From the NCBI GenBank assembly GCA_964653555.1, contig CAZZFT010000001.1, positions 929-64,928 on the forward strand: DNA of 64,000 nucleotides. Direction: 5' to 3'. Below the pieces are notes generated by a model. The model was not told the origin of the DNA, ran no database searches, and was given only the letters and a program-made list of their open reading frames with translations. Below are positions 10,685-58,355 of this stretch, piece by piece. Source of the DNA: an uncultured Spirochaetales bacterium (GTDB lineage Bacteria > Myxococcota_A > UBA9160 > SMWR01). The translations under genes and the position numbers were made by a program. Each line of letters opens with the position of its first letter. The first letter of the stretch is position 1.

Positions 10685-10735
10685 GCCGTCTCCTCCCGGC
10701 CGACCTCCCCGGTTGACTCCGAGATCCGCTCCGTG

Positions 10736-10770
10736 CATATATGTACACGAACGTGCCAAAAAATTATATG
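10736..10770. promoter_or_regulatory. Recurrent AT-rich promoter/operator motif, site 1 (SDR / AveC-1 divergent region)
   Basis: CATATATGTACACGAACGTGCCAAAAAATTATATG. Contains the inverted half-sites ACACG-AA-CGTG. Confidence 0.4.
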
Positions 10771-10782
10771 GGGGCTCTCACG

Positions 10783-12854: not shown

Positions 12855-12870
12855 CGGTCTCCTGCTCGGT

Positions 12871-15254: not shown

Positions 15255-15300
15255 GCGCTGCTTCCCAGCCCGGGACGCCGGCTTCGCCCGCGCCCGGGCC

Positions 15301-15330
15301 GTTTATGTTACATACGTGCCGATTCGAAAG
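15301..15330. promoter_or_regulatory. Recurrent motif, site 2 (SDR / NTF2 divergent region)
   Basis: GTTTATGTTACATACGTGCCGATTCGAAAG. Confidence 0.4.
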
Positions 15331-15417
15331 CGATCGGGAAGTGCGGGCGGGGCATGGGCCGACCCCGGCTTCCGGCGAGGCCACCCAGCCGGGCTGGGCA
15401 GCGGGAGAGGGGGAGCG

Positions 15418-29356: not shown

Positions 29357-29366
29357 CGGTCCCCTC

Positions 29367-42010: not shown

Positions 42011-42203
42011 GAAGTTCGCTATCGCCCGCGCGCGACGCACTCGCCGTCGGCCGCCTCACAGGCAAAATTCGTCTCCAGAACAGCTGGTTATCCGTCAGTC
42101 GCCCTTCGGGATACCCCGGGCCGTTGGAATTCGGGCTTGTTTTTTGTGCCAAGATTTAACAAAAATAATGGGCCCCGCAAGATCGCCCGGAAGGAGCCCA
42201 GGC

Positions 42204-43163
42204 ATGGCCCACGTCCTCTCCCGCTTCGGCGCCGCTGCCACGGCCTCCGAGGTGATCGCCGGCGTCGATCTCTCCGGTCGGACTGCCGTCGTCACGGGGG
42301 GATCGACCGGTCTCGGCGCAGAGACCGCGCGGGCGCTCGCCGGGGCGGGGGCCCGCGTCGTGCTCACCGGGCGCGATGCGGCGAAGGCGGAGAAGGTCGC
42401 CGCCGAGATCGCCGCCGCTACGCGCGCGCCCGCCGTCCTGGCCGAGGTCCTCGACCTGGCTCGAGAGGAGAGCGTCCGGAGCTGCGCGCGACGGATCCTC
42501 GACCGCTGCGAGGGGATCCAGATCCTCGTGGCGAATGCCGGTCTCTTCAAGCCGCCTCAGCGCTACGACGACCGCGAGCGCGAGATGCACTTCTCGGCGA
42601 ACCACCTCGGTCACTTCCTGCTCACTGGGCTCCTCGCGCCCGCTCTGTTCGCGGGCGCACCGGCGCGCGTGGTCGTGCTCAGCTCGGCGGGGCACCACTT
42701 CTGCCCGGTCGTCTTCGACGATCTGGAGCTCCGACAGCGCGAGTACGAGCCCGCCGAGGCCTACGGCCAGTCGAAGACGGCGAATGCACTCTTTGCACTC
42801 GAGCTCGACCGACGCTGGCGGGCGAAGGGCGTGCGGGCCTTCGCCGTACACCCGGGAGAGATCATGACCGACCTCGCTCGCTACGTGACGCGGGACGAGG
42901 TGAAGGCCACCATCGACCGCAGCCCGACGGGCGCTCGGCACCGGACCGTTGCCCAGGGAGCCGCCACCTCCGTCTGGGCGGCGACCGCCCCGGAGCTCGC
43001 GGGGCACGGCGGCCTGTATCTGGAGGACTGCGGCGTCGCGCCCGAGGTCGATCGCTTCGAGGGGTTCCGCGGCGTGCGACCCTACGCGCGCGATCCCGAG
43101 CTGGCCGTCCGGTTGTGGGAGGTCTCCGAGCAGCTCGTGGGCGAGCGCTTCGACGCTCTCTGA
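42204..43163 (+). CDS. SDR family oxidoreductase (retinol-dehydrogenase-like)
   Basis: ATG 42204 is 7 nt after AAGGAG. VTGGSTGLGAETA, ANAG, YGQSKTAN. Confidence 0.86.
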   Translation: MAHVLSRFGAAATASEVIAGVDLSGRTAVVTGGSTGLGAETARALAGAGARVVLTGRDAAKAEKVAAEIAAATRAPAVLAEVLDLAREESVRSCARRILDRCEGIQILVANAGLFKPPQRYDDREREMHFSANHLGHFLLTGLLAPALFAGAPARVVVLSSAGHHFCPVVFDDLELRQREYEPAEAYGQSKTANALFALELDRRWRAKGVRAFAVHPGEIMTDLARYVTRDEVKATIDRSPTGARHRTVAQGAATSVWAATAPELAGHGGLYLEDCGVAPEVDRFEGFRGVRPYARDPELAVRLWEVSEQLVGERFDAL

Positions 43164-43204: not shown

Positions 43205-43396
43205 GTGCGAGTCAAGGTCGACTGGGATCGCTGTCATGGCCACGGGTTGTGCGCCGGCGAGGCGCCCGAGGTCTTCGCACTGCGGGACGACGGGGAGCTC
43301 GACGTGCTGCTGGAGCGACCTGCGGAGGGGCTCCGCCCCCAGGTGGAGAGCGCGGTGCGCTTCTGCCCGACGCGGGCGATCTCGATCGAGGAGTAG
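43205..43396 (+). CDS. Ferredoxin (single-cluster, 3Fe-4S/4Fe-4S type)
   Basis: 63 aa. VDWDRCHGHGLCAGEAPEVF...VRFCPTRAISI. GTG follows GGAAGGAGG. Confidence 0.78.
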   Translation: MRVKVDWDRCHGHGLCAGEAPEVFALRDDGELDVLLERPAEGLRPQVESAVRFCPTRAISIEE

Positions 43397-43426: not shown

Positions 43427-44782
43427 ATGGATCAGCAGGCGCTGCGAAGCTGGGTGGCCGAGGCGGCGGGTGGCGAGGTCGTGCGCTTCGAGCGACTCGG
43501 AGGGGGCAACTCCCGAGAAGCGTGGCTGGCCGACGTCGCGCGCGGCGGGCAGACCCTCGAGCTGTTGCTGCGGCGGGACGCAGGGGGCGGCCCCATGTCC
43601 GGGACCGAGCTTTCGATCGAGCGCGAATCCCGCGTCTACCGCGCGCTCGCCGGAGGTCCCGTGCCAGTGCCTCGGGTCCACGGCGTCGCCCGGGATGCCG
43701 TGCTGCTCGACCGCGTCCCCGGACGCGCCCAATGGGCGACGCTCGTCGATCCGGCCGAGCGCGAGTCGGTGTCGCGCCATTTCGTCGAGATCCTCGCCGA
43801 TCTCCACCGGATGGATCCGCGCCGGCTCGACCTGCCCGGCTTCCCGCTGCCGACGTCGCCCGAGGACCATGCGCGCTGCGACCTCGCACTCTGGGAGCGC
43901 CTGTACGACCGGCACGTCGGTCGTCCGAATCCCTTCGTGCGTTTCGGACTCGCCTGGTTGCGGCGCAACGCGCCCCTTTCGGTGGCGCGCACGGTGCTGG
44001 TCCACGGGGACTGCGGGACGGGAAACTTCCTGTTCCACGACGGATCCGTCAGCGCGGTGCTCGACTGGGAGTTCAGCCACATCGGGGATCCCGTCGACGA
44101 TCTCGGGTGCATCGTCCTCCACGACTTCGTGCAGGGCAGCGACCTGAGTCCCTATTTCACGCTCTACCGCGATCTCGCCGACGTCGAGGTGGAGCGCTCG
44201 AAGCTGCTCTACTACCTGGCCTTCATGAGCCTGCGGTGTCTGGTCGCGTGCTCGATCGCGCTCGGGGCGACCAACCGGTCGATGGAGCGCGGTGTGTACC
44301 TGTCGGTGATCCACCTGTTCGAGCGCTGTCTCGTGCAGGCAATCGCCCAGCACGGGCAGGTGGAGCTCGAAGCCGCGCCGCTCCCCGCGGAGGGGGCGGC
44401 CACGCCGCACTCCCCGCTCTACGAGGTGATGCTCGCCGACCTGCGCGAGGTCATCCTGCCGGCGTTGGCTCGGGACGAGGTCGCTGTGCGCCGCGCGGCC
44501 GCCACCTCGAACATCCTCGTCTACCTCGCAGGCTTCGAGCGGCGGGGACGCGAGCTGGCGGAGGCCGAGCAGGACGACGCTGCGCGGGTGCTCGGTGAGC
44601 GCGCGGCGACCTGTGAGGAGAGCGAGCGTCGGCTCGACCAGCTGGCCGCGGCCCACGAGCCTAGGCGCGAGAACGACTGGCTCGGCTACCTGTCGCGGCG
44701 AAGCGACCGGGAGCTCGCGCTCTGGGGGCCGACCCTGGGCGAGCGAGCCGCTCGGTCCGTTCGCGTGGAGGCCTACCTGTGA
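43427..44782 (+). CDS. Phosphotransferase (APH/choline-kinase-like) family protein, paralog 1
   Basis: LVHGDCGTGNFLFHDGSVSAVLDWEFSHIGDPVDDLG holds the Brenner/catalytic loop and the DxD-like motif. Confidence 0.85.
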   Translation: MDQQALRSWVAEAAGGEVVRFERLGGGNSREAWLADVARGGQTLELLLRRDAGGGPMSGTELSIERESRVYRALAGGPVPVPRVHGVARDAVLLDRVPGRAQWATLVDPAERESVSRHFVEILADLHRMDPRRLDLPGFPLPTSPEDHARCDLALWERLYDRHVGRPNPFVRFGLAWLRRNAPLSVARTVLVHGDCGTGNFLFHDGSVSAVLDWEFSHIGDPVDDLGCIVLHDFVQGSDLSPYFTLYRDLADVEVERSKLLYYLAFMSLRCLVACSIALGATNRSMERGVYLSVIHLFERCLVQAIAQHGQVELEAAPLPAEGAATPHSPLYEVMLADLREVILPALARDEVAVRRAAATSNILVYLAGFERRGRELAEAEQDDAARVLGERAATCEESERRLDQLAAAHEPRRENDWLGYLSRRSDRELALWGPTLGERAARSVRVEAYL

Positions 44783-45723
44783 TCGAGCCTCGCGACGACT
44801 CGTTCCACGAGCCCACCAGCGACCACCCCGAGTGGAACGAGACCTTCTGGTTTTCCTTCGCCGTTCCCGAGCGCAAGATCTCGGGCACCCTCTACCCGGT
44901 CTTCCGCCGCAACCTCGGAGCGGTGGGCTGCTGCATCGTGCTCTGGGACGAAGCCGACCCGTTGCCCTGGGAGGCATTGTACTACGACTACCGGTACTGG
45001 ATGCCCTGGCCCGAAGGCGACCTCACGTGCTTCGCGCTGGCCAACGGCTACGAGGCCGAGTGTGTGGCGCCGCTCTCGGACTACCGGCTCCGCTACGCCG
45101 ACGGCGATGTGCTCGAATTGGATCTGGTCTTCTCCGCGCTGATCCCGCCGCACGAGACGGCGATGAAGGGGCTGGGCTTCGCCGGCGCCGCCCACTGGGA
45201 TCAGCACGGTCGGATCACCGGTCGCCTCCGGCTGCGCGGGGAGGAGATCGCGGTCGACAGCATCTACATGCGCGACCGGTCCTGGGGACCGCGTCCGGCG
45301 GCGCGCGGGCCACGGCGGATGGGCTACACGACGGGCTTCCACGAGTCCGCCGGCTTCCACACCATCAGTGCGGCCGAGGACATGCTCGCGCCCCGGCCGA
45401 AGGAGCCGATCTTCCAGGGCTACCTGTGGCGGGACGGCGTGGTGGCGGACGTGGTCGGGGGAGAGCGTCGCGTGGTCGAACGCGACCCCGACGGACGTTG
45501 GCCGATCCGGGTCGAGATCGAGCTCAGGGACGCACTCGGACGCACGCTCGAGACCGAGGGGCGCTGCGAGAACCGGCTCGCCTTTCCCGCGCTGCCGGGA
45601 AACTTCAACTGGATGAGCCTCACCCGCTGGACCCTCGACGGCGCCGAGGCCTGGGGCGAGGATCAGGACATCTGGAACGTCGGGTCCTGGCGCGACTTCG
45701 CCCACGCGCGGCCGAGCCGCTAG
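44779..45723 (+). CDS. Conserved protein of unnamed family (RDRSWG motif), paralog 2
   Basis: The GTG overlaps the kinase stop (GTGA). Motifs: HPEWNETFWFSF, LDLVFSA, HWDQHGRITGRLRLRG...MRDRSWGPR. Confidence 0.75.
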   Translation: MIEPRDDSFHEPTSDHPEWNETFWFSFAVPERKISGTLYPVFRRNLGAVGCCIVLWDEADPLPWEALYYDYRYWMPWPEGDLTCFALANGYEAECVAPLSDYRLRYADGDVLELDLVFSALIPPHETAMKGLGFAGAAHWDQHGRITGRLRLRGEEIAVDSIYMRDRSWGPRPAARGPRRMGYTTGFHESAGFHTISAAEDMLAPRPKEPIFQGYLWRDGVVADVVGGERRVVERDPDGRWPIRVEIELRDALGRTLETEGRCENRLAFPALPGNFNWMSLTRWTLDGAEAWGEDQDIWNVGSWRDFAHARPSR

Positions 45724-45729: not shown

Positions 45730-47820
45730 ATGGCGACCCCGACGTCCGGCGACCTGCGGGTGGGCGTCGACGTGGGAGGCACGTTCACGGACCTCTTCGT
45801 CCTGGATCCCCGCGACGGCTCCCTGCGCACGGGCAAGACCTGGTCGCGGCCCGAGGAGCCCGAGGCAATCGTAGAGGCCCTCGGCGAGCTGGGTATCAGC
45901 CCGGCGGAGATCGCCAGCTTCTGTCATGCATCCACCCGCGGCATCAACGTCCTGGTGACGCGGACGGGTGCGGCCACCGGCCTGCTCTCGACACGCGGCC
46001 ACCGCGACATCCTCGACATGGGCCGCGGGCTCCGACCCCTCGAGTGGCTCTGGGACCTCGACCGCACGCGCCCCCACCTCGAACGGCCGCTGATTCCGCG
46101 CGCGTGGCGGCGGCCCGTCTCGGAGCGGGTCCTGGCCGACGGTCGCATCCTGGTGCCCCTCGACGAGGCGGAGGTGCGCTGCGAGGCGCGCTGGCTGGTG
46201 GAGCAGGGGATCGAGAGCCTCGCCGTCTGCTACCTGAACAGCTACGCGAACCCCGTCCACGAGGAGCGCACGCGCGAGATCTTGGAGAAGGAGCTCCCCG
46301 GTGTCGCGGTCTTCCTCTCGATCGACATCGCCCCGGTGCAGAACGAGGTGTTCCGGACCACCGCCGTGGCGATCGATGCCTATGTGTCGCCGCGCGTCGA
46401 CGCCTACGTGGACATTCTGCACCGGCGGCTCGAGGAGCGCGGCTTCGCGGGACGCTTCGCGGTCATGAAGGTGGATGGCGGTTTCGCGACGCTCGACGCG
46501 GTTCGCGGGCGGGGCGTCGAGACGATCCACTCGGGGCCCGCCGGCGGCGTGACGGCCGCCCGTCATCTCGGCGAGCGGCTCGGCGAGCCCAATCTGCTGC
46601 TGCTCGACATGGGCGGCACGACCGCCGACGTGAGCGTGATCGAAGAGGGCGAGGTCCCGGTCACCCGAGACTACGAGGTCGAGCTCGATCTCTTCCTGGG
46701 CGTGCCGAGTGTGGACGTGCGCTCGATCGGCGCGGGCGGCGGCAGCATCGCCTGGGTCGATCAGGGTGGGGCGCTGCGCGTCGGACCCGAGAGCGCGGGA
46801 GCCTTCCCGGGCCCCGCGTGTTATGGACATGGCGGAACGCGCGCCACGGTGACCGACGCCCACCTGGTGCGCGGCAGCCTCTACCCGGCGCGCTTCCTCG
46901 GCGGCCGGACGCGGCTCGACGAGGGCGCCGCCCGCCGGGCGGTCAAGGCGGTCGGGCGCCAACTCGGGCTCGGGATCGAGACGGCTGCCCAGGGCATCGT
47001 CGACATCGCCAACGCCAACATGGCCGGTGCGCTGCGGGACCTGACCGTCCACCGCGGTCTGCACCCACGCGACTTCGCGCTGCTCGTCTTCGGCGCCGCG
47101 GGGCCCCTGCACGGAGCCGCGCTGGGACGCGAGCTGGGCGTGCGCGAGGTGGTGGTGCCGCCCTGGCCCGGCGAGCTCTCGGCCTTCGGGCTGCTCGTGG
47201 CCGAGGCGCGCACGGAGCGGATGCGGGCGCTGTTCCGGCTGCTGGCGGAGCTGCGCGGAGCCGAGCTGACCGAGATCTTCGCGGAGCTCGAGGAGCGTAC
47301 GGTGGCCGCCCTCGTCGACCAGGGTGTCGCCGCGTCCGAGGTGAGCGTGCAGCGCTGGATGGACGGCATGTACCTCGGACAAGCGTCGGAGACGCGCTGC
47401 GCGCTGCCGCCGGGCCCCCTCGACGATGCCGCGGTGGCCGGCGCGGCCGAGGCCTTCGAGCGGGCCTACGAACGCCGCTGGGGGAGCCGGCTCGGAATGC
47501 CGGTGCGGGTGGGCCACATCGGCGTGAATGCGCTGGGACGTCGCGACGTGCCCGTCCTTCCAGCGCTGCCGCCGGGCGACGAGCGTCCGCCCCGGAATGC
47601 CCATCTCGCGGATCTTGCCGCCACCCTGCGATGCGAAGGGGCGATCGCTCCCGTGGCCCTTCCCGTCTACGAGCGCGGCGCGCTGTGCGCGGGGAACCGG
47701 CTGCGCGGACCCGCCCTCGTCGTGCAGCCGACCTCGACGACGCTGCTCGAGCCGGGCGACGTCGCGCTCGTGGACGCGCTCGGGAACCTGCGGATCCGCT
47801 TCGACGGAGCCGCTTCGTGA
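45730..47820 (+). CDS. Hydantoinase/oxoprolinase family protein, A-type (HyuA-like)
   Basis: 696 aa. The N-terminal VGVDVGGTFTDL, the central DMGGTTADV, and the length all fit the hydantoinase_A family. Confidence 0.88.
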   Translation: MATPTSGDLRVGVDVGGTFTDLFVLDPRDGSLRTGKTWSRPEEPEAIVEALGELGISPAEIASFCHASTRGINVLVTRTGAATGLLSTRGHRDILDMGRGLRPLEWLWDLDRTRPHLERPLIPRAWRRPVSERVLADGRILVPLDEAEVRCEARWLVEQGIESLAVCYLNSYANPVHEERTREILEKELPGVAVFLSIDIAPVQNEVFRTTAVAIDAYVSPRVDAYVDILHRRLEERGFAGRFAVMKVDGGFATLDAVRGRGVETIHSGPAGGVTAARHLGERLGEPNLLLLDMGGTTADVSVIEEGEVPVTRDYEVELDLFLGVPSVDVRSIGAGGGSIAWVDQGGALRVGPESAGAFPGPACYGHGGTRATVTDAHLVRGSLYPARFLGGRTRLDEGAARRAVKAVGRQLGLGIETAAQGIVDIANANMAGALRDLTVHRGLHPRDFALLVFGAAGPLHGAALGRELGVREVVVPPWPGELSAFGLLVAEARTERMRALFRLLAELRGAELTEIFAELEERTVAALVDQGVAASEVSVQRWMDGMYLGQASETRCALPPGPLDDAAVAGAAEAFERAYERRWGSRLGMPVRVGHIGVNALGRRDVPVLPALPPGDERPPRNAHLADLAATLRCEGAIAPVALPVYERGALCAGNRLRGPALVVQPTSTTLLEPGDVALVDALGNLRIRFDGAAS

Positions 47821-49733
47821 GCGCAGCCCTCGATCCGATCACGCTCGAGGTATTGCGCAACGCCCTCGTCAGCATCGTCGGGCACATGGAGACCTCGCTG
47901 TATCGCACCGCCTTCTCCGTCACGGCGCGCGACTTCCACGACAGCGCCTGCGGCATCTTCCGTCCGCCCGAGCGGGGCCTCGATCTCGTGGCCGCGGCGG
48001 CCGGAGTCCCCTGTCTGGCCGTCGTCACGCACCACGGGCTGCGCGAGAACCTGCTCGAGTTCGGCGCCGAGAACCTGCTGCCCGGCGACGAGCTCGTGTT
48101 CAACGATCCCTACCGCGGCGGCAACCACGCGCCCGACGTCGTCCTGGCACGTCCCGTCTTCGATGAGCAGGGCATGGTGGCCGTGTGCGCCGCCCGGACG
48201 CACTGGGTCGACGTCGGCGGGGTGGCGATGGGAAGCTGGCCCGTCGGCGGTACCGTCGAGACGATCCAGCAGGAGACGTCGCTGCGGCTCCCGCCGATGC
48301 TCCTCTACCGCCAGGGCCAGCCGGTCAAGAGCACCCATAGCCTGATCCTCGACGCGACGCGCGCGCCGCTGCTGGTGCGAGGCGACATGGGCGCCCAGCA
48401 TACGGCCAACCTCACCGGGGAGCGGGAGATCCTGGCCCGCGTGCGTCGTTACGGCCGCGATGCGTTGTTCGCGGCGATGGACTACGCCCTCGACTACGGC
48501 GAAGCGCGCGCGCGTGCGGCGCTGCGCGCGGTGCCCGACGGCGAGTACGAGGCCGAGGACACCCTCGACGACGACGGCGTCGAGGACATGCCGGTGCGTG
48601 TGCGCTGCCGCCTGACGGTGCGCGGCGACAGCGCCGAGCTCGACTTCAGCGGAACCAGCCGGCAGACCGCGGGGAACTCCAGCACACCCTGGGCGATGGC
48701 GGCGTCCTGTGCGCACCTCAGCCTGATGTCGCTCCTCGACCCGACGATCCCCTCGAACGGCGGATCCCTGCGACCCCTCGATCTGATCCTGCCACCGGGG
48801 ACGCTCGTCCACGCGTTGCCCTACCACGCGTGCGCCGATGGCAATGCCACCGCCGGTGCGCGCATCTTCTCGGTGGTACTCCAGGTCGTGGGCATGGCGC
48901 TTCCCGAGCGCGCCGCCGGCGACTTCACCTCGAGCTCCTCGATGGCCACCTTCGCGGGTCTCGAGGATCCCCGTCCGGGCCGCGCGGGTATGCCGTGGAT
49001 CCACTGGATGGGCGTGTTCTCGGGCTGGGGCGCGACGCGGCGCTCGGACGGGCATTCCTACAGCCTGGTCCCGCTCTCCAACTGCGTGGACCCGCCGATC
49101 GAGTCGATCGAGCAGGACGCACCGGTGCTGGTGGTCCAGCGCGAGTTCACGCCCGACTCGGGCGGTCCCGGCGAACACCGCGGTGGCCTCGGCACCACCT
49201 ACGAGATCGGCTTGCTCGCCTCCGCCTTCGCCAGCAGCAGCTGCGACCGGGTCCGGCGGGCGGGCTTCGGTGCGAACGGAGGACGGGCGTCGCACCGAAC
49301 CTACGTGTTCGAGACCGGGGGCCTCGAGCGCGCCGTGCGCGGGGAGAGCGACCCTCGCGCGCGACCCCTCGTCGGTCTCTTCCGCGAGGGCGACGGGACG
49401 CGCTTTCGCACCGGAAAGTTCTTCGGCCACCCGATCGCCGCCGGGCAGACCTGGCGCAGCCATCATCCGGGCGGAGGTGGCTGGGGCGATCCCCTGCGCC
49501 GGGACCCGGAGCGCGTGCGCGCCGACGTGGAGGCGGGACTGGTGACGAGGATGGGTGCCGAGCGCGACTACGGGGTCGTTCTGAGCGACGGGCTCGCCGT
49601 CGATGCCGCCGCCAGCGAGTCGCTGCGCCGCCGGCTCGCCGCGGATCCGTCCTTCTGCGACCGCGTCGGCCCGGCGCGCTACGAGGCGCCGCCGGTCGCG
49701 GATCCCGCATTGACCGGGGAGGGCGGTTCGTAG
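47817..49733 (+). CDS. Hydantoinase B/oxoprolinase family protein (HyuB-like)
   Basis: The GTG overlaps the HyuA stop (GTGA). DPITLEVLRNALVSIVGHMETSLYRTAFS and NDPYRGGNHAPD are typical HyuB motifs. Confidence 0.88.
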   Translation: MSAALDPITLEVLRNALVSIVGHMETSLYRTAFSVTARDFHDSACGIFRPPERGLDLVAAAAGVPCLAVVTHHGLRENLLEFGAENLLPGDELVFNDPYRGGNHAPDVVLARPVFDEQGMVAVCAARTHWVDVGGVAMGSWPVGGTVETIQQETSLRLPPMLLYRQGQPVKSTHSLILDATRAPLLVRGDMGAQHTANLTGEREILARVRRYGRDALFAAMDYALDYGEARARAALRAVPDGEYEAEDTLDDDGVEDMPVRVRCRLTVRGDSAELDFSGTSRQTAGNSSTPWAMAASCAHLSLMSLLDPTIPSNGGSLRPLDLILPPGTLVHALPYHACADGNATAGARIFSVVLQVVGMALPERAAGDFTSSSSMATFAGLEDPRPGRAGMPWIHWMGVFSGWGATRRSDGHSYSLVPLSNCVDPPIESIEQDAPVLVVQREFTPDSGGPGEHRGGLGTTYEIGLLASAFASSSCDRVRRAGFGANGGRASHRTYVFETGGLERAVRGESDPRARPLVGLFREGDGTRFRTGKFFGHPIAAGQTWRSHHPGGGGWGDPLRRDPERVRADVEAGLVTRMGAERDYGVVLSDGLAVDAAASESLRRRLAADPSFCDRVGPARYEAPPVADPALTGEGGS

Positions 49734-50098: not shown

Positions 50099-51649
50099 AT
50101 GAATCGTGCGAGCGATCTCGACCGAGCGGCGCGAGAGTGGCCGCAGAAGGCCGCGCTCTACTTCGAGGGGCCGGAGCAGCAGTGGACCTACGCCGAGCTC
50201 GACGCGCGTGCGTCGCGCATCGCGACCGGGCTCGAGGCGGAGGGCGTCCGCCCGGGCGACCGGGTGGCGATCATCATGTCCAACCTTCCCGAACACGTGG
50301 CCAGCTGGTACGGCATCGCGAAGGCCGGCGCCATCCCCGTCGACGTCAACTACATCCTGGCCGACGAGGAGTGGACCTTCATCCTCGACGACTGCGAGCC
50401 CAAGGCGATCCTCACCGACATGCGCTTCGGCGAACGGGTCGCCGGGGTGGCCGGCCGCGTCTCGAGCCGGCCCGTCGTCTTCGTGGCGCGACGCGAAGGC
50501 GATCTGGGAGACGGAGCGCTCGAGGATCTTGGCCGCGGGACGGGACCGCGCCCGGCGATGGACCGCGATCCGGACGACGTCGCGGTGCTCGCCTACACGA
50601 GCGGCACCACGGGCTACCCGAAAGGGGTCATGCACAGCCAGCGGATCCTGGAGTTCCAGATGGGAACGCTCCAGGAGACCAACGGCCTCAACCACGATGA
50701 CGTGATCGCGTGCGCCACCCCGATCTTCCCGATGCACGGCTACCTGACCCAGCCGGGGATCTCGGTGCACGTGGGCGCCACGCTGCTGCTGATGGACCGC
50801 TTCGATCCGGCCGTGTTCTCGGCGAAGTCGCGCGCGTATCCGATCACCTGCGCCACCTTCGCGCCCGCCATGGTCGTCGCGCTGCTCCAGCTGCCCGAGG
50901 GCCAGGGGCCGGTGCTCGACCACGCGCGCCTGTTCTTCTGCGGGGGCGCCGCGCTTCATCCGGAGGTGCGCGAGCGCTTCGAAAAGACCTACGGCGCCCC
51001 GCTCGTGCAGGGCTTCGGCTCCACCGAGGTGATGGGCGCGATCGCGATGGAGCGGGCCGGGCGCCGCGCTCCCCCGGGCAGCTGCGGATCGCTCTGGCCG
51101 GGCGCGAAGGAGCTGGTCCGCGTGGTCGACGACGAGGGCCACGACGTGCCCCTGGGCGAGATCGGAGAGTTCCTCGTCCACAAGAGCCGCGCGACGATGG
51201 GCTACTGGCGCCGCCCGGACCTCACCGAGGAGGCCTTCTACGACGACACCTGGTTCAAGATGGGCGACGTCGGGCGAATCGACGAGAACGACTTCGTGTT
51301 CCTCCTCGACCGCAAGAAGGACATGATCATCCGCGGGGGATTCAATATCTACTCGGCCGAGATCGAGCGCGTGCTGAACCAGCACGACCTGGTCGCCGAG
51401 GCGACGGTGATCGGTCTTCCGCACGAGCGCCTCGGAGAGGTGCCGAAGGCCTTCGTCGTGCTGCGCTCCGGGACGGGCGACGACGCCCTGGCCGAGGAGC
51501 TGCGCGCCTACTGCATCCAGCGGATCGGCAAGCTCAAAGCGCCCGAGGAGATCGAGTTCGTGGCCTTCGATGCGCTGCCGCGCAACGCGATGACCAAAGT
51601 TCTCAAGCGGGAGCTGCGCGACCGCGTGCTCGCCCGGGCCCGGGGCTGA
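50099..51649 (+). CDS. AMP-binding acyl-CoA synthetase/ligase
   Basis: YTSGTTGYPKGV (AMP motif), plus GEI, DRKKDMIIRGGFNIY and a C-terminal K. ATG 50099 follows GAGAGG, with an alternative ATG at 50081. Confidence 0.88.
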   Translation: MNRASDLDRAAREWPQKAALYFEGPEQQWTYAELDARASRIATGLEAEGVRPGDRVAIIMSNLPEHVASWYGIAKAGAIPVDVNYILADEEWTFILDDCEPKAILTDMRFGERVAGVAGRVSSRPVVFVARREGDLGDGALEDLGRGTGPRPAMDRDPDDVAVLAYTSGTTGYPKGVMHSQRILEFQMGTLQETNGLNHDDVIACATPIFPMHGYLTQPGISVHVGATLLLMDRFDPAVFSAKSRAYPITCATFAPAMVVALLQLPEGQGPVLDHARLFFCGGAALHPEVRERFEKTYGAPLVQGFGSTEVMGAIAMERAGRRAPPGSCGSLWPGAKELVRVVDDEGHDVPLGEIGEFLVHKSRATMGYWRRPDLTEEAFYDDTWFKMGDVGRIDENDFVFLLDRKKDMIIRGGFNIYSAEIERVLNQHDLVAEATVIGLPHERLGEVPKAFVVLRSGTGDDALAEELRAYCIQRIGKLKAPEEIEFVAFDALPRNAMTKVLKRELRDRVLARARG

Positions 51650-51671: not shown

Positions 51672-53045
51672 ATGGATCCGCTCTCGTCGCCCGAGCTTCG
51701 GCATTGGGTCGAGCGCACCAGCGGCGGCCGAATCGTGGCGCGCCACGCCCACAACCAGGGCTTCGGTCGCCAGATCGCCATGGTGGATGTCGAGGATTCC
51801 GAGGGCGAGCGGCGCGAGCTGGTGCTGCGCTGCGAGATCGGGACCGTGTTCGCTGGCACCGAGATCTCGCTTGCGCGGGAGGCGACGGCCTATCGCGCCC
51901 TCCAGGGACGAGGAGTGCCGATCGCTCGCCTCTACGGCGTGACCGACGACCGCGACGCGCTCTTGCTGGAGCGCGTGCCGGGCACCGCCGACACGGCGCA
52001 GCTGACGGATTCCGAGCGCGACCGCCTCTCCGCGCACTTCGCCGAAGTGCTCGCGGCGCTGCACGCGATCGATCCCAGCGAGCTCGACCTGCCGGGCTTT
52101 GCCCGACCCAGGACGCCGGCCGACCACGCCCTCCAGGACTTCGGCCTGTGGAACGGTATGTTCGAGGCGTTCGCGCGCGCGCCGGATCCCCTGGTGCGCT
52201 TCGCCCACCGCTGGCTGGCGCGCAACGCCCCGACCTCGATGCCGCGCACGGCTTTCCTCCAGGGCGATACCGGCCCGGGAAACTTCCTGCACGACGGCGA
52301 GCGCGTGCGGGCCCTGATCGACTGGGAGTTCTCCCACGTCGGCGATCCGCTGGAGGACCTCGCGTGGGTCGCCTTTCGCGCCGGGCTCCAGCCCTTCGGA
52401 GACCTGACCCGCTTCTATCGCCGCTATGGCGAGCTCTCGCGGATCCGCTTCGACCGCGAGCGCGTCCTCTACTACCGGGTAGGCGTGCTCTTCCGCTGCG
52501 TGGTCGGCACGGTGGTGGGCGTGGCGCGCGCGCTCCGGACCGGGACGGTGCACCAGGGCCTGGGAGCCAACTGCTTCGGCCTCGAGGTGATGCGCCGCCA
52601 TCTCTGCGAGCTCCTGGCCGAGCGCGGCGGCTGGCCGCTGGAGCTCCCGGAACTGCCCGAGGCCGAGCCGGGTGAGGGCGAGGAGCTCCTGAACTCGTTG
52701 ATCCGCGATCTCACGGAGTTCATCGTACCCGCGGTCTCGGAGCCGACGGCGCTCGCCCGGGCGCACAGCCTCACAGCCTCGCTGCTGCACCTGCGTGCGG
52801 CCGACCGCCACCGCCGCGCGCTCGAGGAGCAGGAGCACGAGGAGATGACCGAGCTGCTCGGCCACCTCCCCGCGAGCCTCGAGGAGGGGACCCGGGAGGT
52901 CGACGCCCTGGTGGCCCGCGCGAGCCCGGAGCGCGAGGGCGAGATTTTCCGCTACCTGGCGCGCCGGGCCGCCCGGTCCGGCGCGTTGTGGCCTTCGCCC
53001 GCGGGCCCGGCTCCGGCGAGTCTGCCGCCGGTGCCGGAGCTCTAG
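51672..53045 (+). CDS. Phosphotransferase (APH/choline-kinase-like) family protein, paralog 2
   Basis: FLQGDTGPGNFLHDGERVRALIDWEFSHVGDPLEDLAW. Colinear with the ORF at 43427. Confidence 0.85.
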   Translation: MDPLSSPELRHWVERTSGGRIVARHAHNQGFGRQIAMVDVEDSEGERRELVLRCEIGTVFAGTEISLAREATAYRALQGRGVPIARLYGVTDDRDALLLERVPGTADTAQLTDSERDRLSAHFAEVLAALHAIDPSELDLPGFARPRTPADHALQDFGLWNGMFEAFARAPDPLVRFAHRWLARNAPTSMPRTAFLQGDTGPGNFLHDGERVRALIDWEFSHVGDPLEDLAWVAFRAGLQPFGDLTRFYRRYGELSRIRFDRERVLYYRVGVLFRCVVGTVVGVARALRTGTVHQGLGANCFGLEVMRRHLCELLAERGGWPLELPELPEAEPGEGEELLNSLIRDLTEFIVPAVSEPTALARAHSLTASLLHLRAADRHRRALEEQEHEEMTELLGHLPASLEEGTREVDALVARASPEREGEIFRYLARRAARSGALWPSPAGPAPASLPPVPEL

Positions 53046-54514
53046 CCTCGCACCGCCGGGTCCGACGCGAGGAAGTCGTCGACGGCGCTCTCGACGGCCG
53101 TCCCCTTGAAGAAGGTGGGATGGCTGGAGGCGAACAGGCGCGCGGCGTTCCCGAACACGAAGTCGCGGAACGACTCCTCGTCGAGACGGCTCTCCTCGAC
53201 GTGCTCGTACGCCTCGACCAGCACCTTCGCCATGTCGGGGACGTCCCAATGGCTGATGTCCGAGCTGAAGAGCGCGCCGAGGCGGGCACCGAAGGGGTTC
53301 GACGGCTGGAAGGCCGCGGCCGTCGTCGGCGTGTCGGCCTCGCAGCCGAAGAAGAACGGCTCGGCGAAGAGCTTGCGGATCTCCTCGGCGCTCTCGATGC
53401 GGCAGGCCGCGAACTCGTCGAGCAGCGCGGGGTCTTCGGAGGTCGAACCGACCAAGCCGAGCAGGGTGTCCAGCCCTTCGTCGAGGCGGCCCTCGAGCAT
53501 CCGGCTCCCGTAGCGCTGCGCGTAGTCCAGCAACGCGCTCCGGTCGAGATTCGCGGGGTCGTAGTTCGCCAGATTCCTCGGGTTGCGCTTCTCCCAGTGG
53601 TCGATCAGATCCGCGTACAGACTCGCCGCCCATCCGACGCCGCCTTCCAGGAAGGCGAAGCGCAGCCCCGGAAAGCGCCGCGTCACACCGCCCAGGAACA
53701 GGGCCCGGCACAGAGGCTCGTGGGCGCCGGCAAAGGCGCCGAGGTGGTTGTACACGTAGCTCGACGGGGAACGCCGGCCGGTCCACCCCATCGAGTGGGA
53801 GTGGAAGGTGGGTGAGATGCCGAGCTGCTGGCAGCGGGCCCAGACCGGGTCGTAGTCGTGCTCGCTGTCCACGCCGTAGACGTCGATCCACGGCGCCTGG
53901 CGCGCCACTTCGGGGTCCCGGCGTGCGACCGCCGGGATCGGGCGATCGACGAAGCCGGCCAGCAGGGCGACCTTGAAGCCGAGCACGTCGACGGCGTACC
54001 CCAGCTCCTCGATCGCCTCCTCGGGCGTGTGCATCGGGATGACCGCGACCGGAGTGAGCCGGTCGGAGAACTCCCGGAACACCTCGGCGTGCATCCGGTT
54101 GAAGGCGCGGCACGAGGCCCGGCGCACCTGCTCGTCGTCGACGTGGGGCGCCACCATTCCGAGACTCGGATAGACGACCGCGAAGTCGAGGCCGAACTCG
54201 TCGAGCCGCTCGTAGAGGAGCTTCGGCAGCATCGCGGTCGCCCGGTCGCGCGTGTTGCGGGTCGGGGTGCCCCACCACGCGGGGCGGGCGATCCGACGAT
54301 CCAGCCGTTGGGCGGGTTCCAGCTCGTACCACCCGTAGCAGGCGAATCGGTCGCCGCGGACGTACCGGAAGAATCCTTCGGCGACGGAGCGTCCTCCGAC
54401 CTCGTTCATCGCGTCGACGACCGCAGGCATGAACTCCATCCAGTGCCCGTCCGCGTCGATCACGGGGTGGCAGAGCTTCGCCCGGATCGCCTCGCCCCTC
54501 GCGGCTTCGCGCAT
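53042..54514 (-). CDS. Amidohydrolase family protein
   Basis: ATG 54514 follows GAGGAGGAG. The N-terminal VIDADGHWMEF, and DISHWD near the C-terminus. Confidence 0.8.
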   Translation of the reverse strand: MREAARGEAIRAKLCHPVIDADGHWMEFMPAVVDAMNEVGGRSVAEGFFRYVRGDRFACYGWYELEPAQRLDRRIARPAWWGTPTRNTRDRATAMLPKLLYERLDEFGLDFAVVYPSLGMVAPHVDDEQVRRASCRAFNRMHAEVFREFSDRLTPVAVIPMHTPEEAIEELGYAVDVLGFKVALLAGFVDRPIPAVARRDPEVARQAPWIDVYGVDSEHDYDPVWARCQQLGISPTFHSHSMGWTGRRSPSSYVYNHLGAFAGAHEPLCRALFLGGVTRRFPGLRFAFLEGGVGWAASLYADLIDHWEKRNPRNLANYDPANLDRSALLDYAQRYGSRMLEGRLDEGLDTLLGLVGSTSEDPALLDEFAACRIESAEEIRKLFAEPFFFGCEADTPTTAAAFQPSNPFGARLGALFSSDISHWDVPDMAKVLVEAYEHVEESRLDEESFRDFVFGNAARLFASSHPTFFKGTAVESAVDDFLASDPAVRG

Positions 54515-54660: not shown

Positions 54661-55662
54661 ATGGCGGACGAGCACAACTTCACTCTCGCCCCGCAGGACG
54701 AGCTTCCGATCCAGGCGCCCTCGGGCATCCCGGGGTGGACCGAGAACTACTGCTTCCAGGCCTACGATCCCACCCAGCGCATCGGTTTCTTCCAGAATCT
54801 CGGAACGATCAATGCCGATCCGCTGATCTGGCGCGAGCTGCTGACGCTCTACCTGCCCGACGGAACGCTCATGCTCGCCAAGGGATTCGGAGGCTGGGCC
54901 ACTCCCGACCTCAAGGACGGTCCCCGGGCCGCGAGCCAGTCCTTCGTATGCGAGGAGCCGTGGAAGCGCTGGCGTGTGCGCTGGTCGGGGCCTGCCCGGC
55001 ACGTGACCCTCGCCGAGATCTCGACCTGCCGTCTCCAGGACGGTCTGTTCGAGCCGGTCGAGATCGATCTCGTGTTCGAGGCGATCGCGCCGACCTGGAA
55101 CGTCGGATCGCAGATGGAGACGCAGTCCTGGGCCCACGGGCACTACGACCAATCCATGTCGATCACCGGCACGCTGCAGTGCAAGGGCCAGCGCTACGCG
55201 ATCGAGGGGGTGGGGCTGCGCGACCACTCGCGGGGTCCGCGGAGCTGCGAGCCGATCGAGCGGCACGGCTGGATCCACGGCGAGTTCGAGGACGGGCGCT
55301 GCTTCAGCATCCTCGACTTCGGATTCCGCTCCAGCGACGCTCAGCCGATGAGCCGCGGCTTCGTGTCGGACGGCAAGGCCCTGCACGAGATCGAAGTGAT
55401 CGAGGTGCCGCACTACCGGAGCCTCGCCACCGTGAACGATCCGGGCCGGGTGGTCTTCGACTCGCCCTGGGGTCGCGCGGAGATCGAGGGCGAGGTGCTG
55501 GCGAACGCGCTCTACTGCGTGATCCCGCCCAACGAGGTGACCTTCGGGATCGACGCGGGCTTCGACGGGCTCGCCCTCACCGAGGCCCAGGTCCGCTACC
55601 GCTGGGACGGCGTCACCGGCTACGGCCTCTGGGAGCGGACCGGCCGCGGCGTCACCGCCTAG
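54661..55662 (+). CDS. Conserved protein of unnamed family (RDHSRG variant), paralog 3
   Basis: RBS GAGAGGAGGGG. Motifs: IPGWTENYCFQAYD, IDLVFEA, HYDQSMSITGTLQCKG...LRDHSRGPR. Confidence 0.75.
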   Translation: MADEHNFTLAPQDELPIQAPSGIPGWTENYCFQAYDPTQRIGFFQNLGTINADPLIWRELLTLYLPDGTLMLAKGFGGWATPDLKDGPRAASQSFVCEEPWKRWRVRWSGPARHVTLAEISTCRLQDGLFEPVEIDLVFEAIAPTWNVGSQMETQSWAHGHYDQSMSITGTLQCKGQRYAIEGVGLRDHSRGPRSCEPIERHGWIHGEFEDGRCFSILDFGFRSSDAQPMSRGFVSDGKALHEIEVIEVPHYRSLATVNDPGRVVFDSPWGRAEIEGEVLANALYCVIPPNEVTFGIDAGFDGLALTEAQVRYRWDGVTGYGLWERTGRGVTA

Positions 55663-55710: not shown

Positions 55711-56853
55711 ATGCCCACCATCGATCGCATCCTCACCACTCACGTGGGAAGCCTGCCGCGACCGGACGACCTGCTGGCGGTGCTGCACGCCAAGTACGCC
55801 GGAGAGGACTACGACGGAGACGAGCTCGCGCGCCTCGTCGCCCGCTCGGTGGTCGACGTGGTCCGACGTCAGGTCGAGACCGGCATCGACCTGGTGAACG
55901 ACGGCGAGATGGGCAAGCCGACCTACGCCACGTACGTGTCCGAACGGCTCTCGGGCTTCGGTGACACGCCGAAGCGCGGCAAGGCGCTGCGCGATCTCGT
56001 CGAGTTCCCCGCCTACACCAAGCGCATCGTGAAGATCGGCGCCGTCGCTCCGACCGTCACCGGAGCGGACTGCGTCGGACCCGTCGCCGTAGCGGACCGG
56101 GGGCCTCTTGACGTCGATCTGACGAACATGGCCGCGGCCGCCAAGGAGTGCTCGCCGGTCGGCGTGTTCATGACGTCGGCGTCTCCGGGGGTGATCACCT
56201 CGTTCCAGGAGAACAAGCACTATCCGACCCACGACGCCTATCTCGAGGCCCTCGCCGAGGCGATGCGGGAGGAGTACGAGGCGATCGTGGCCGCGGGATT
56301 CCTGCTCCAGCTCGACAGCCCGGACCTGGCAATGAACCGCCACCTGGTCCATCCAGACGACCCCGAGGCCTTCTTCCGCGACTGCGAGAGGCACGTCGAA
56401 GCCCTGAACCACGCGACGCGGAACATCCCCCCGGATCGCATGCGAATGCACCTGTGCTGGGGGAACTACCCCGGACCGCACCACCTCGACGTGCCGCTCG
56501 AGCAGGTGCTGCGGCCGGCGCTTCGGGCGCGACCGGCGACGCTGCTCCTCGAGGGGGCGAATCCGCGCCACGAGCACGAGTGGGAGATCTTCCGGACGAT
56601 TCCGCTCCCCGAGGACAAGGTTCTGGTGCCCGGCATGCTCGACACCACCTCCAACTACATCGAGCACCCCGAGCTGATCGCCCAGCGGCTGTGCCGGTAT
56701 GCCGACGTGGTCGGGCGGGAGCGGGTGATGGCGGGAACCGACTGCGGTTTCGCCACCTTCGCCGAGTTCCCGCTGATCGACCCGGAGATCGCCTGGGCGA
56801 AGCTCCGGGCGATGGTCGAGGGCGCGGCCCTCGCGAGCGACCGTCTGTGGTGA
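55711..56853 (+). CDS. Cobalamin-independent methionine synthase (MetE C-terminal-domain-like) family protein
   Basis: 380 aa. THVGSLPRP..., DGEMGK, and HLCWGNY (zinc-site region). It is a single catalytic-like domain, about half the length of full-length MetE. Confidence 0.78.
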   Translation: MPTIDRILTTHVGSLPRPDDLLAVLHAKYAGEDYDGDELARLVARSVVDVVRRQVETGIDLVNDGEMGKPTYATYVSERLSGFGDTPKRGKALRDLVEFPAYTKRIVKIGAVAPTVTGADCVGPVAVADRGPLDVDLTNMAAAAKECSPVGVFMTSASPGVITSFQENKHYPTHDAYLEALAEAMREEYEAIVAAGFLLQLDSPDLAMNRHLVHPDDPEAFFRDCERHVEALNHATRNIPPDRMRMHLCWGNYPGPHHLDVPLEQVLRPALRARPATLLLEGANPRHEHEWEIFRTIPLPEDKVLVPGMLDTTSNYIEHPELIAQRLCRYADVVGRERVMAGTDCGFATFAEFPLIDPEIAWAKLRAMVEGAALASDRLW

Positions 56854-58355
56854 GTGGATCGCGGGCACCCGATCACGAGGTCGTGGTCGTGGGCGCGGGC
56901 TTCGGCGGGATCGGCGTCGGCATCGAGCTGAAGCGGATCGGCATCGACGACTTCGTGCTGTTGGAGGAGGCCGACGACCTCGGCGGAACCTGGCGCGACA
57001 ACACGTACCCGGGCCTCGAGGTCGACATCCCCTCCTTCAGCTACTCGTACCACTTCGAGCCCTGCGCGGACTGGAGCCAGGTCTTCGCCCCGGGGCGCGA
57101 GGTCAAGCAGTACGCGGACCACTGCGCGGACAAATACGGAATCCGACCCCACATCCGGTACCGCTCGCATGTCGAGGGGGTCGAGTGGGACGAGGAGGGC
57201 ACCCGCTGGCGCATCCACGTCGCGGGCGGGCGGGAGGTGACCGCGCGCCATCTGGTCTCCGCCGCCGGGTTCCTGGTGCGCCCGAAGATGCCGGACCTGG
57301 TCGGGATCGAGTCCTTCCGCGGCAAGCAGATCCACACCGCCCGCTGGGATCACGACTACGATCTCACCGGCAAGCGCGTGGCCCTGATCGGCACCGGAGC
57401 GACGGGTGTCCAGGTGGGTCCCGCGATCGCCGATCGCGTCGCCCGGCTCGACGTCTACCAGCGCACCGCGATCTGGCTGATGCCCAAGATGAACGCGGTC
57501 TTCTCGGAGCGCACGAAGCGCCTGTTCCGCAGGGCACCGGTCCTCCAGAAGGGGATCCGCGCCGCGAGTTGGCTGGGGATGGACGTGTTCTTCTCCACCG
57601 GCTGGCTCAACCATCACCGCTTCTCCTGGATCATCGACAAGATCGAGGCGGCGCTCATCCGCAACATGCGGGAGCAGGTGCGCGATCCGAAGATCCAGGA
57701 GAAGCTGATCCCGAACTACAACTTCTTCTGCAAGCGGCCGAGCATGTCGAACACCTTCTACCCGATGTTCAATCGGGAGAACGTCGAGCTGATCACGGAC
57801 CCGATCGATCGCGTCACCGAGAGCGGGATCACCACGCAGGACGGCGTCCACCGTGAGGTGGACGCCCTGATCTGCGCCACCGGCTTCAAGATCTTCGACC
57901 GCGAGTCGACGCCGAGCTTCGAGGTCCTGGGCCGGGGCGGGAAGAACCTCGGCGACTGGTGGGCCGAGAGCCGATACCAGGCCTTCCATGGCACGACGAT
58001 GCCCGACTTTCCGAACTTCTTCATGCTCGTTGGGCCCTACGCCGCGTCCGGCGCCTCCTACTTCGACACGCTGAGCTCCCAGGTCGCCCACATCTCGCGC
58101 TGCCTGCGGGCCGCCCGCACGCGCCGCGCCACACGGATCGAGGTGAGACGGGAGGCGCACGAGCGCGACTTCGCCTTCGTCCTGCGCCGGAGCGCGAACA
58201 GCGTGCTCTTGCACGGCAACTGCGCGTCTTCGCGCAGCTACTACCTGGACCGCCGGGGAGACGCTCCCGTCATCCGCCCGGTCTCGCCGAGCGAGCACTG
58301 GCTCCGTTCGCGCCTGTTCCGCGTCGGGCGCAGCTACCACCTCGACGACGGCTGA
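56850..58355 (+). CDS. Flavin-containing (Baeyer-Villiger-type) monooxygenase
   Basis: The GTG overlaps the upstream stop (GTGA). FAD loop VVGAGFGG, BVMO fingerprint FRGKQIHTARWD (FxGxxxHxxxWD), and NADP loop GTGATG. Confidence 0.85.
   Translation: MSGSRAPDHEVVVVGAGFGGIGVGIELKRIGIDDFVLLEEADDLGGTWRDNTYPGLEVDIPSFSYSYHFEPCADWSQVFAPGREVKQYADHCADKYGIRPHIRYRSHVEGVEWDEEGTRWRIHVAGGREVTARHLVSAAGFLVRPKMPDLVGIESFRGKQIHTARWDHDYDLTGKRVALIGTGATGVQVGPAIADRVARLDVYQRTAIWLMPKMNAVFSERTKRLFRRAPVLQKGIRAASWLGMDVFFSTGWLNHHRFSWIIDKIEAALIRNMREQVRDPKIQEKLIPNYNFFCKRPSMSNTFYPMFNRENVELITDPIDRVTESGITTQDGVHREVDALICATGFKIFDRESTPSFEVLGRGGKNLGDWWAESRYQAFHGTTMPDFPNFFMLVGPYAASGASYFDTLSSQVAHISRCLRAARTRRATRIEVRREAHERDFAFVLRRSANSVLLHGNCASSRSYYLDRRGDAPVIRPVSPSEHWLRSRLFRVGRSYHLDDG

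Follow-up and report, generated by a model that had tools for sequence, protein, structure and literature searches.

Kinase-linked DUF7065/DUF7064 proteins as probable phosphoester lyases related to 25-phosphosteroid lyase

Three paralogous proteins, designated P1, P2 and P3, are encoded in a 64,000-nt stretch of DNA (70% G+C; hereafter the window) from an uncultured Spirochaetales bacterium (contig CAZZFT010000001.1, positions 929 to 64,928). All of them match the Pfam families PF23213 (DUF7065) and PF23212 (DUF7064). The P2 gene is translationally coupled to a kinase gene of the aminoglycoside phosphotransferase (APH) type, and the P1 gene follows a gene for a phospho-histidine swivel protein. 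On the evidence of homology, predicted fold, conserved motifs, coupled genes, enriched kinase neighbours and natural fusions, a DUF7065/DUF7064 protein and its neighbouring kinase probably form an ATP-dependent dehydratase, in which the former would act as a cytosolic, phosphate-eliminating C-O lyase of the 25-phosphosteroid lyase (25-PSL) superfamily. A logic of phosphorylation followed by elimination had been proposed in a preliminary description of the window, and it gained strong support from the match to 25-PSL, the enrichment of APH genes, the linkage to phosphoenolpyruvate (PEP)-utilizer genes and two kinds of fusion.

Three ancient paralogs of a Pfam-defined family

P1 (328 aa) is encoded at 11868-12854 on the minus strand, and P2 (314 aa; 44779-45723) and P3 (333 aa; 54661-55662) are encoded on the plus strand; residue numbers below refer to P2. 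All three open reading frames (ORFs) were found where the preliminary description had placed them, with the motifs it had listed: P-x-W-x-E (PAWHEC in P1, PEWNET in P2 and PGWTEN in P3), (I/L)DL(A/V)F (IDLAFED, LDLVFSA and IDLVFEA), a His block (HFEL, HWDQ and HYDQ) and an RD block (RDRSWG, RDRSWG and RDHSRG). Pairwise identities of only 26-27%, together with significant BLASTP matches (E=5e-7 for P2-P1, 9e-13 for P2-P3 and 1e-9 for P1-P3), indicate that they are true but ancient duplicates and not recent copies. A family hidden Markov model (HMM) run over all six frames found exactly three copies in the window, which ruled out a fourth paralog, and an APH HMM found exactly two kinases.

The gathering thresholds of DUF7065 (27 bits) and DUF7064 (24.7 bits) were both exceeded by P1 (80.4 and 74.6 bits) and by the divergent P3 (48.4 and 34.4 bits). 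P2 passed the former (31.8 bits) and scored 1.2 bits below the latter (23.5 bits); its orthologs carry both domains in precomputed annotation. The family that had been described as unnamed is therefore this Pfam pair, and it is related to the 'Rv3169 family' of NCBIfam (NF053593). P2, P1 and P3 scored 46.5, 28.9 and 22.8 bits against the latter, and homologs from mycobacterial metagenome-assembled genomes (MAGs) scored 46 and 41 bits. Because these values lie far under the cut-off of 150 bits, the window proteins belong to another, related subfamily.

An exhaustive search from P1 retrieved 556 cluster representatives (50% identity clusters) at E<=1e-3. Every homolog in a large protein collection was labelled 'hypothetical protein', and a literature search found no paper on DUF7064 or DUF7065. 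The family is also present in ascomycete fungi, whose members score highest for DUF7065 (about 300 bits). The member from Glonium stellatum has a 120-aa N-terminal extension that is different from the APH kinase.

Fold and conserved residues shared with 25-PSL

The AlphaFold (AF2) model of P2, built with 42 sequences, was almost wholly beta (pLDDT 93.9, pTM 0.92). Its top five Foldseek matches in the PDB were all chains of 25-PSL (E=5e-12 to 3.5e-11, TM 0.64-0.68), the structures of which (9FZN, 9G2I and 9G4C) were released in 2026. The P1 model was less confident than that of P2 (pLDDT 72.8) and gave the same ranking, again with 25-PSL chains as the top five (best E=9e-14); across both models, the TM range to 25-PSL was 0.62-0.68. 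The next PDB matches were the Diels-Alderases Fsa2, Phm7 and CghA, kievitone hydratase and AttH. Since AttH (2ICH) was among the matches of both models, the earlier guess of a lipocalin/AttH-like fold was right.

At the sequence level, PDB searches with P1 or P2 as single sequences gave nothing useful, and a profile search alone worked. The family profile matched 25-PSL over the central block with E=2.3e-6 (hmmsearch of PDB sequences), and in hhalign comparisons with 25-PSL, the P2 family reached 96% and the P1 subfamily 91%. The 25-PSL sequence, rebuilt from PDB alignments as residues 1-266 and so without its C-terminal 96 residues, spanned the DUF7065 model end to end with 17.8 bits (threshold 27). 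The paralogs had no match to a CrtC/lipocalin-type Pfam domain at E<=0.1, and the family profile matched the CrtC-domain protein 7A0Q (kievitone hydratase) weakly (E=0.19).

Conservation was counted across 147 diverse family members. H10, W19, E21, H139, G148 and the block R165-D166-x-S168-W169-G170-x-R172 were near-invariant, with R165 conserved in 96%, D166 in 99% and R172 in 99% of the members, and S168, W169 and G170 also conserved. Their counterparts kept in 25-PSL are H22, D32, G155 and R175-D176-x-S178-W179-G180-x-R182. The R-D-R-S-W-G-x-R block is complete in P1 and P2; P3 reads RDHSRGPR, in which the Asp and the flanking Arg residues are kept and the Trp is lost. In 9G4C, which contains the lyase with phosphate and the alkene product, the block reads RNRSWG instead of the wild-type RDRSWG, and the Asn replaces D176, the residue aligned with D166 of P2. 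An Asn at this 99% conserved Asp points indirectly, in our view, to a catalytic role of the block; the RDRSWG block would thus be the active site of both 25-PSL and the family.

A search with the 25-PSL fragment returned relatives that were all truncated or frameshifted. One of them (locus L083, 8001-10126) is 58% identical over the fragment and split by a frameshift. It is preceded by steroid-side-chain-type genes (thiolase, ChsH2-like, acyl-CoA dehydrogenase and CoA-transferase) and directly followed by a sulfotransferase gene (PF00685), not by a kinase gene. Whether sulfate serves as an alternative leaving group there is speculative.

Kinase partners of P2 and P1

The P2 operon lies on the plus strand and begins with a short-chain dehydrogenase/reductase (SDR) gene (42144-43163, with a start at 42144 or 42360; adh_short/KR). 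A gene for a small ferredoxin of 63 aa (43205-43396; Fer4_15/Fer4_13), the kinase gene APH_A (43427-44782), P2 and the genes for hydantoinase A and B follow in this order. The APH_A stop overlaps the P2 start as GTGA at 44779-44782, exactly as the preliminary description had reported. APH_A (451 aa; PF01636, 104 bits) has intact catalytic motifs (HGDCGTGN and DWE), and among solved structures it is closest to 3DXP (E=3e-17) and to the kinase domain of ACAD11 (E=6e-12). The second APH-type kinase, APH_B (51672-53045, plus strand; 457 aa; PF01636, 93.6 bits), is 38% identical to APH_A (BLASTP E=1e-84). It carries the motifs QGDTGPGN and DWE, with Gln replacing the usual His before the catalytic Asp. 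Both kinases are thus APH proteins, as assigned earlier; they are about 450 aa long and 3DXP/ACAD11-like, with a C-terminal extension. Downstream of P2, the gene at 45730-47820 encodes a hydantoinase A/caprolactamase-alpha-like ATP-dependent enzyme (Hydant_A_N, Hydantoinase_A and Hydant_A_C; 483 bits against the CapA-like NCBIfam model, under the cut-off), and that at 47817-49733 encodes a hydantoinase B subunit (PF02538). The hydantoinase genes were rejected as a conserved part of the module because they are absent from relatives.

The P1 operon, on the minus strand, consists of an SDR gene (14463-15254; adh_short_C2, 207 bits), which overlaps the next gene by 4 nt, the gene for a swivel-His phosphotransfer protein of 531 aa (12871-14466) and P1. 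The junction comprises the TGA of the partner gene, 16 nt including an AGGAG ribosome-binding site and the ATG at 12854, a start that homolog alignments favour over the upstream ATG at 12968. The close spacing noted earlier therefore holds, and so does the statement that a PEP-utilising swivel domain is all that is recognisable in the partner: PF00391 (PEP-utilizers mobile domain, 84.8 bits) was its sole Pfam match. Its residues 237-524 align to residues 570-864 of rifampicin phosphotransferase (RPH; 5FBS/5HV1; E=2e-27), and the catalytic phospho-His motif (SH) is present in GSAISHGAIVARE. The protein therefore has the architecture of a substrate-binding and a swivel domain without an ATP-grasp domain. 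A tblastn search of the whole window with three PPDK_N domains gave a best E of 0.26, which ruled out a hidden ATP-grasp gene there, and Pfam scans of the window genes yielded no PPDK_N match.

Conservation of the kinase link across genomes

Neighbouring genes were examined in two samples. The first consisted of 80 genome loci with P2-type proteins from Acidimicrobiia, Actinomycetes, Myxococcota, Acidobacteriota and Proteobacteria, in which the immediate neighbour genes were called and their Pfam families tallied. APH was the commonest neighbour family (13/78 upstream and 23/76 downstream), followed by SDR (6 upstream and 4 downstream); three neighbours were ABC1 kinases. With an iterated APH profile, an adjacent APH gene was found in 37 of the 80 loci, usually on the same strand and often with gaps of 0-40 nt. 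All non-adjacent positions together held about 16 APH ORFs, so that the enrichment at adjacent positions was roughly 20-fold per position. The commonest class of partner kinase in the relatives (for example, at locus L036) was closest to 9FSG (E=1e-37) and Rv3168 (E=3e-33). 9FSG, an 'APH-like protein', may be 25-hydroxysteroid kinase (25-HSK), the kinase that acts with 25-PSL.

The second, independent sample comprised 80 metagenome loci retrieved through the RDHSWGxRxW variant, 23-37% identical to P1. In 38 of these loci, each side extended over at least 1 kb; 13 of the 38 had an adjacent APH gene and 9 an adjacent PEP-utilizer-type gene (together 22/38). The two closest P1 relatives with enough flank (L086 and L091) are paired with the short, swivel-only form of the partner, like P1 in the window. 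In four other loci (L112, L120, L137 and L154), an 890-aa PPDK_N+PEP-utilizers gene overlaps the DUF start with its end.

Moreover, both kinase types occur fused to the family. Fusions of APH, DUF7065 and DUF7064 were found in Thyridium curvatum (XP_030995376.1), in Aspergillus unguis (KAL4808797.1) and in one metagenome cluster, with the kinase as the N-terminal part; a PEP-utilizer fused to the fungal proteins was considered and rejected because this part is APH. Single-ORF fusions of PPDK_N, PEP-utilizers, DUF7065 and DUF7064 were found at three loci (L104, L126 and L127). The neighbourhood enrichment for which the preliminary description had suggested a check was thus observed in the first sample, and linkage recurred in the second; together with the fusions to both kinase types, this indicates that pairing with a phosphoryl-transfer enzyme is a property of the family and not specific to the window.

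The P3 region and a syntenic locus in a related genome

An acyl-CoA synthetase gene (AMP-binding; 50099-51649, plus strand) ends 22 nt upstream of APH_B, hinting that the substrate may be CoA-bound, as for ACAD10/11 and LvaA. Between APH_B and P3 lies an Amidohydro_2 gene on the minus strand (53042-54514; PF04909), convergent with the kinase gene and divergent from P3. P3 is the first gene of its operon and is followed, on the same strand, by a MetE-like gene (55711-56853; Meth_synt_2) and a Baeyer-Villiger/flavin monooxygenase (BVMO) gene (56847-58355).

A syntenic locus (L001, positions 3375-16912) was found in the closest related genome, the 'delta proteobacterium' MAG MFD09206.bin.2.206. 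Its gene order is SDR, APH_A, P2, acyl-CoA synthetase, APH_B, Amidohydro_2, MetE-like and BVMO. The P2 ortholog is 82% identical to P2, the acyl-CoA synthetase gene directly after it encodes an 89% identical ortholog, and APH_A, P2, acyl-CoA synthetase and APH_B form one run of genes. The P2 and P3 regions of the window therefore represent one supercluster, the conserved core of which is the kinase and P2. The related locus lacks P3, hydantoinase A/B, the ferredoxin and the AveC-like gene. As for the context of P3 in the preliminary description, the single Amidohydro_2 gene between it and APH_B and its position at the head of an operon were correct; the link to the kinase that had been drawn from them is weak, as the related locus has the kinase without P3.

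Two paralogous membrane proteins of the AveC-like 'spirocyclase' family (PF17198) are encoded at the P1 and P3 clusters. The gene at 10768-11874 (plus strand) ends convergently with P1, overlapping its stop codon, and the gene at 58373-59464 (minus strand) closes the P3 operon. Neither has a counterpart in the related locus.

Proposed reaction and alternative explanations

In the reaction that we propose, the kinase would phosphorylate a hydrophobic alcohol without an activating neighbour and so convert the hydroxyl into a good leaving group. APH_A would perform this step for P2 and the RPH/HpeH-like phospho-histidine swivel protein for P1, and APH_B may act in trans for P3. The double beta-barrel cavity of the lyase would then hold the phosphoester, and the invariant Arg residues of R-D-R-S-W-G-x-R would bind the phosphate. 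As the phosphate departs, the invariant Asp (D166 in P2) would take a proton, so that inorganic phosphate and an alkene result. Two of the operons begin with an SDR gene, and these SDRs may produce or use up the alcohol or the alkene. The partner kinases belong to classes with known activity as kinases of hydrophobic hydroxyl compounds (3DXP/ACAD11/Rv3168-like APHs and RPH/HpeH-like dikinases), which supports the proposed dehydratase.

Several points weigh against it. The P1 partner lacks an ATP-grasp domain, and the window does not encode one elsewhere. In P3, the motif deviates (RDHSRG, no Trp); its gene lies outside the kinase operon and is absent from the related locus, which keeps the kinase. 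25-PSL is just 13-15% identical to the window proteins and scores below the Pfam threshold of DUF7065. The predicted roles of the Asp and Arg residues have no other basis than conservation and the D-to-N change seen in 9G4C. Hydratases (kievitone hydratase and CrtC), AttH and Diels-Alderases share the fold, and the fold alone therefore leaves the chemistry open. No substrate can be named, and steroid C25-hydroxylase-type genes are not among the annotated genes of the window. Finally, a kinase gene is missing next to the family gene in about half of the loci; since the gene for 25-PSL is itself separated from its kinase gene (PMC8449060), the absence of such a neighbour is no evidence against coupling.

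Among the alternatives, phosphate might indeed be the leaving group, with the resulting carbocation being captured, either intramolecularly by cyclisation or rearrangement in the manner of terpene cyclases or by substitution or hydrolysis with water or another nucleophile. We consider this outcome unlikely, albeit the least unlikely of the four weighed here. The superfamily includes kievitone hydratase/CrtC-type hydratases and the cyclases Fsa2, Phm7 and CghA, the outcomes could have diverged among paralogs that are 26-27% identical (P3 with its RDHSRG motif being a case in point), and AveC-like 'spirocyclase' genes adjoin two of the clusters. However, the eliminating lyase 25-PSL is closest in both structure and sequence, and its acid/base Asp is kept. 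Moreover, the context is catabolic (hydrolases, monooxygenases and a CoA ligase), and neither a terpene synthase nor a polyketide synthase (PKS) was found among the annotated window genes. Slightly less probable still is that the proteins are phosphate-independent hydratases or isomerases of the CrtC/AttH/kievitone hydratase type and that the kinase acts on their product, for example a tertiary alcohol, or on something unrelated, as in intracellular trapping of the substrate. The loci lacking an adjacent kinase would fit this explanation, as would the fold matches to kievitone hydratase (7A0Q) and AttH (2ICH), with TM of 0.53-0.65, and the weak profile match to 7A0Q. It is opposed by the lack of a Pfam CrtC/lipocalin match and by the Arg-rich R-D-R-S-W-G-x-R block, which is shared specifically with 25-PSL and would suit an anionic group; in addition, N-terminal kinase fusions argue for consecutive steps on one substrate.

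Two further explanations appear far more remote. A beta-barrel with an internal cavity, partnered by kinases for hydrophobic molecules, could be a non-catalytic, lipocalin-like protein that binds, solubilises and presents the substrate to the kinase, but the near-invariant H, E, H, R, D, S and R in the 147 sequences are typical of an active site and the closest relative is an enzyme, which makes this improbable. Coincidental pairing in a gene-dense, paralog-rich catabolic island is the least credible of all. The P3-APH_B link, which spans an opposite-strand gene and is not conserved in the related locus, would be in keeping with coincidence; the roughly 20-fold enrichment, the linkage to two kinase types in the second sample as well and the two kinds of natural fusion effectively refute it for P2 and P1.

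Gene content of the rest of the window

Outside the regions described above, the window forms a redox and hydrolase island in which luciferase-like monooxygenases are numerous and SnoaL-like proteins, SDRs and an F420H2-dependent reductase are also encoded. Specifically, the region 15849-37438 contains eight luciferase-like monooxygenase genes and genes for four SnoaL_4 proteins, an F420H2-dependent quinone reductase, a nitroreductase, a Zn-dependent dehydrogenase, an enoyl-CoA hydratase and a LexA/IclR-type regulator. This content suggests an F420-using organism that degrades an alicyclic or polyketide-like compound, and the genes surrounding the proposed kinase-lyase pairs have the look of a catabolic pathway for an alicyclic, terpenoid or lipid-like compound. 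The annotated window genes include neither molybdenum hydroxylases nor steroid side-chain genes.

On the minus strand at 26397-31043, genes for a VWA-domain protein (29367-31043) and a CbbQ/NorQ-type AAA ATPase (28562-29320) are followed by a gene for a 727-aa protein with zero Pfam matches (26397-28580). The regions 735-5090 and 7792-9375 are unrelated to the proposed kinase-lyase pairs; they carry genes for an Lhr-type large helicase and for an FHA-domain protein, the latter followed by a Ser/Thr protein kinase gene.

Implications

The dehydration of an alcohol without a neighbouring carbonyl is chemically hard, and phosphorylation by ATP followed by elimination is a recently recognised solution (25-HSK/25-PSL and ACAD10/11). 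If the proposed dehydratase is real, proteins so far called 'hypothetical' in a widespread family would acquire a testable function, many genes labelled 'aminoglycoside phosphotransferase-like' (Rv3168 among them) would have to be reread as genes for metabolic alcohol kinases, and His-swivel dikinases would gain a new downstream role. Natural kinase-lyase fusions would then be ready single-polypeptide catalysts for regioselective alkene formation. For the window, this reading offers a concrete point of entry to a catabolic island that is otherwise opaque.

A broader generalisation seems to us evenly balanced between true and false. DUF7065/DUF7064 might represent a large lyase family that, with either of two unrelated kinase types (APH or RPH/PEP-synthase), constitutes a portable 'ATP-dependent dehydratase' cassette in Actinomycetota, Myxococcota, Proteobacteria and, in fused form, ascomycetes. 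Rv3168-Rv3169 would be included, and 25-HSK/25-PSL would be its first characterised and unusually unlinked case. In that event, Rv3168 would not be an aminoglycoside kinase, and the cassette would provide a general route for removing unactivated hydroxyls from hydrophobic metabolites.

Comparison with known systems

The closest precedent is the pair 25-HSK and 25-PSL of Sterolibacterium denitrificans, which dehydrates a tertiary alcohol in an ATP-dependent manner via a phosphoester (PMC7411048, PMC8449060; see also PMC11061730). P1 and P2 have the same fold as 25-PSL, their best structural match, and the DD N-terminus, the acidic W-x-E position, PNLG and R-D-R-S-W-G-x-R are common to 25-PSL and the family profile; the same kinase-then-lyase logic is proposed here for the window pairs. 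Nevertheless, the family H139 is replaced by Arg and W19 by Phe in 25-PSL, the identity of 13-15% places 25-PSL in another family at the Pfam level, and the genomic contexts differ. P2 is translationally coupled to its kinase and other members are fused, whereas the S. denitrificans genes are unlinked (PMC8449060). The window proteins are not orthologs of 25-PSL, as judged from these differences. As Mo-dependent steroid hydroxylases are not among the annotated genes of the window, a 25-hydroxysteroid is probably not the substrate; the lack of an anaerobic sterol side-chain context weakens identity with 25-PSL, not a 25-PSL-like mode of action.

APH-type kinases that prepare an elimination are also found in bacterial levulinate catabolism, in which phosphorylation (LvaA/LvaC) precedes phosphate elimination. 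The kinase domains of ACAD10/11 phosphorylate 4-hydroxyacyl-CoA, from which the phosphate is then eliminated (PMC11342911, PMC12440821). The window kinases are near 3DXP and the kinase domain of ACAD11, the fused forms carry the kinase at the N-terminus, as in ACAD10/11, and the acyl-CoA synthetase gene directly before APH_B recalls CoA-bound substrates. In contrast, the eliminating module of ACAD10/11 is a flavin-dependent acyl-CoA-dehydrogenase domain, unrelated to the all-beta DUF7065/DUF7064, and no such gene lies beside the pairs in the window. The kinases 3DXP, Rv3168 (3ATS) and ACAD10 have been grouped as lipid-alcohol kinases (2026 preprint, bioRxiv 10.1101/2025.09.10.675409).

The swivel-His partner of P1 resembles HpeH in its substrate-binding and swivel architecture with a phospho-His motif (PMC12167813). 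In the two-component small-molecule dikinases HpeHI, CreHI and PpsAB, the ATP-grasp half is a separate protein (PMC12167813); there it is always co-encoded, unlike in the window. Coupling or fusion to full-length PPDK_N+PEP-utilizers enzymes, similar to RPH and the dikinases (PMC4844700, PMC12167813), is seen in relatives of P1. The known members of this group, however, act on phenols or rifampicin, phosphorylating them for trapping, carboxylation or inactivation; none is known to supply a substrate to a lyase of this fold.

In Mycobacterium tuberculosis, Rv3168 and Rv3169 form one operon that is repressed by the TetR repressor Rv3167c (PMC5340868); 3ATT is a structure of Rv3168 (PMC3691515). 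As at P2 in the window, an APH-type kinase gene comes first; in M. tuberculosis, it is followed by a member of the 'Rv3169 family'. Matches of all three paralogs and of the mycobacterial homologs to that family lie in the central block (E down to 2e-12), and the partner kinases of many relatives are Rv3168-like. However, the only role discussed for Rv3168 is that of a putative aminoglycoside kinase, and Rv3169 has no known function.

The group of CrtC, kievitone hydratase, AttH and the Diels-Alderases Fsa2, Phm7 and CghA shares the double beta-barrel (TM 0.5-0.65), hydrophobic, often isoprenoid substrates and carbocation-like or pericyclic transition states. It differs in having no Pfam-level or sequence-level match to the paralogs; RDRSWGxR has not been reported there, and the group has neither kinase partners nor a PKS context.

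The two-step logic, which the preliminary description did not know to be described, is thus known from 25-HSK/25-PSL (PMC7411048, PMC8449060) and from ACAD10/11 (PMC11342911, PMC12440821). In the literature searched, which did not cover the primary 25-PSL paper, no description was found of a lyase of this fold coupled to a His-swivel dikinase or of fusions with two kinase types. What the window and its relatives add is a set of distant, gene-coupled 25-PSL-like members that are linked to two unrelated types of kinase.

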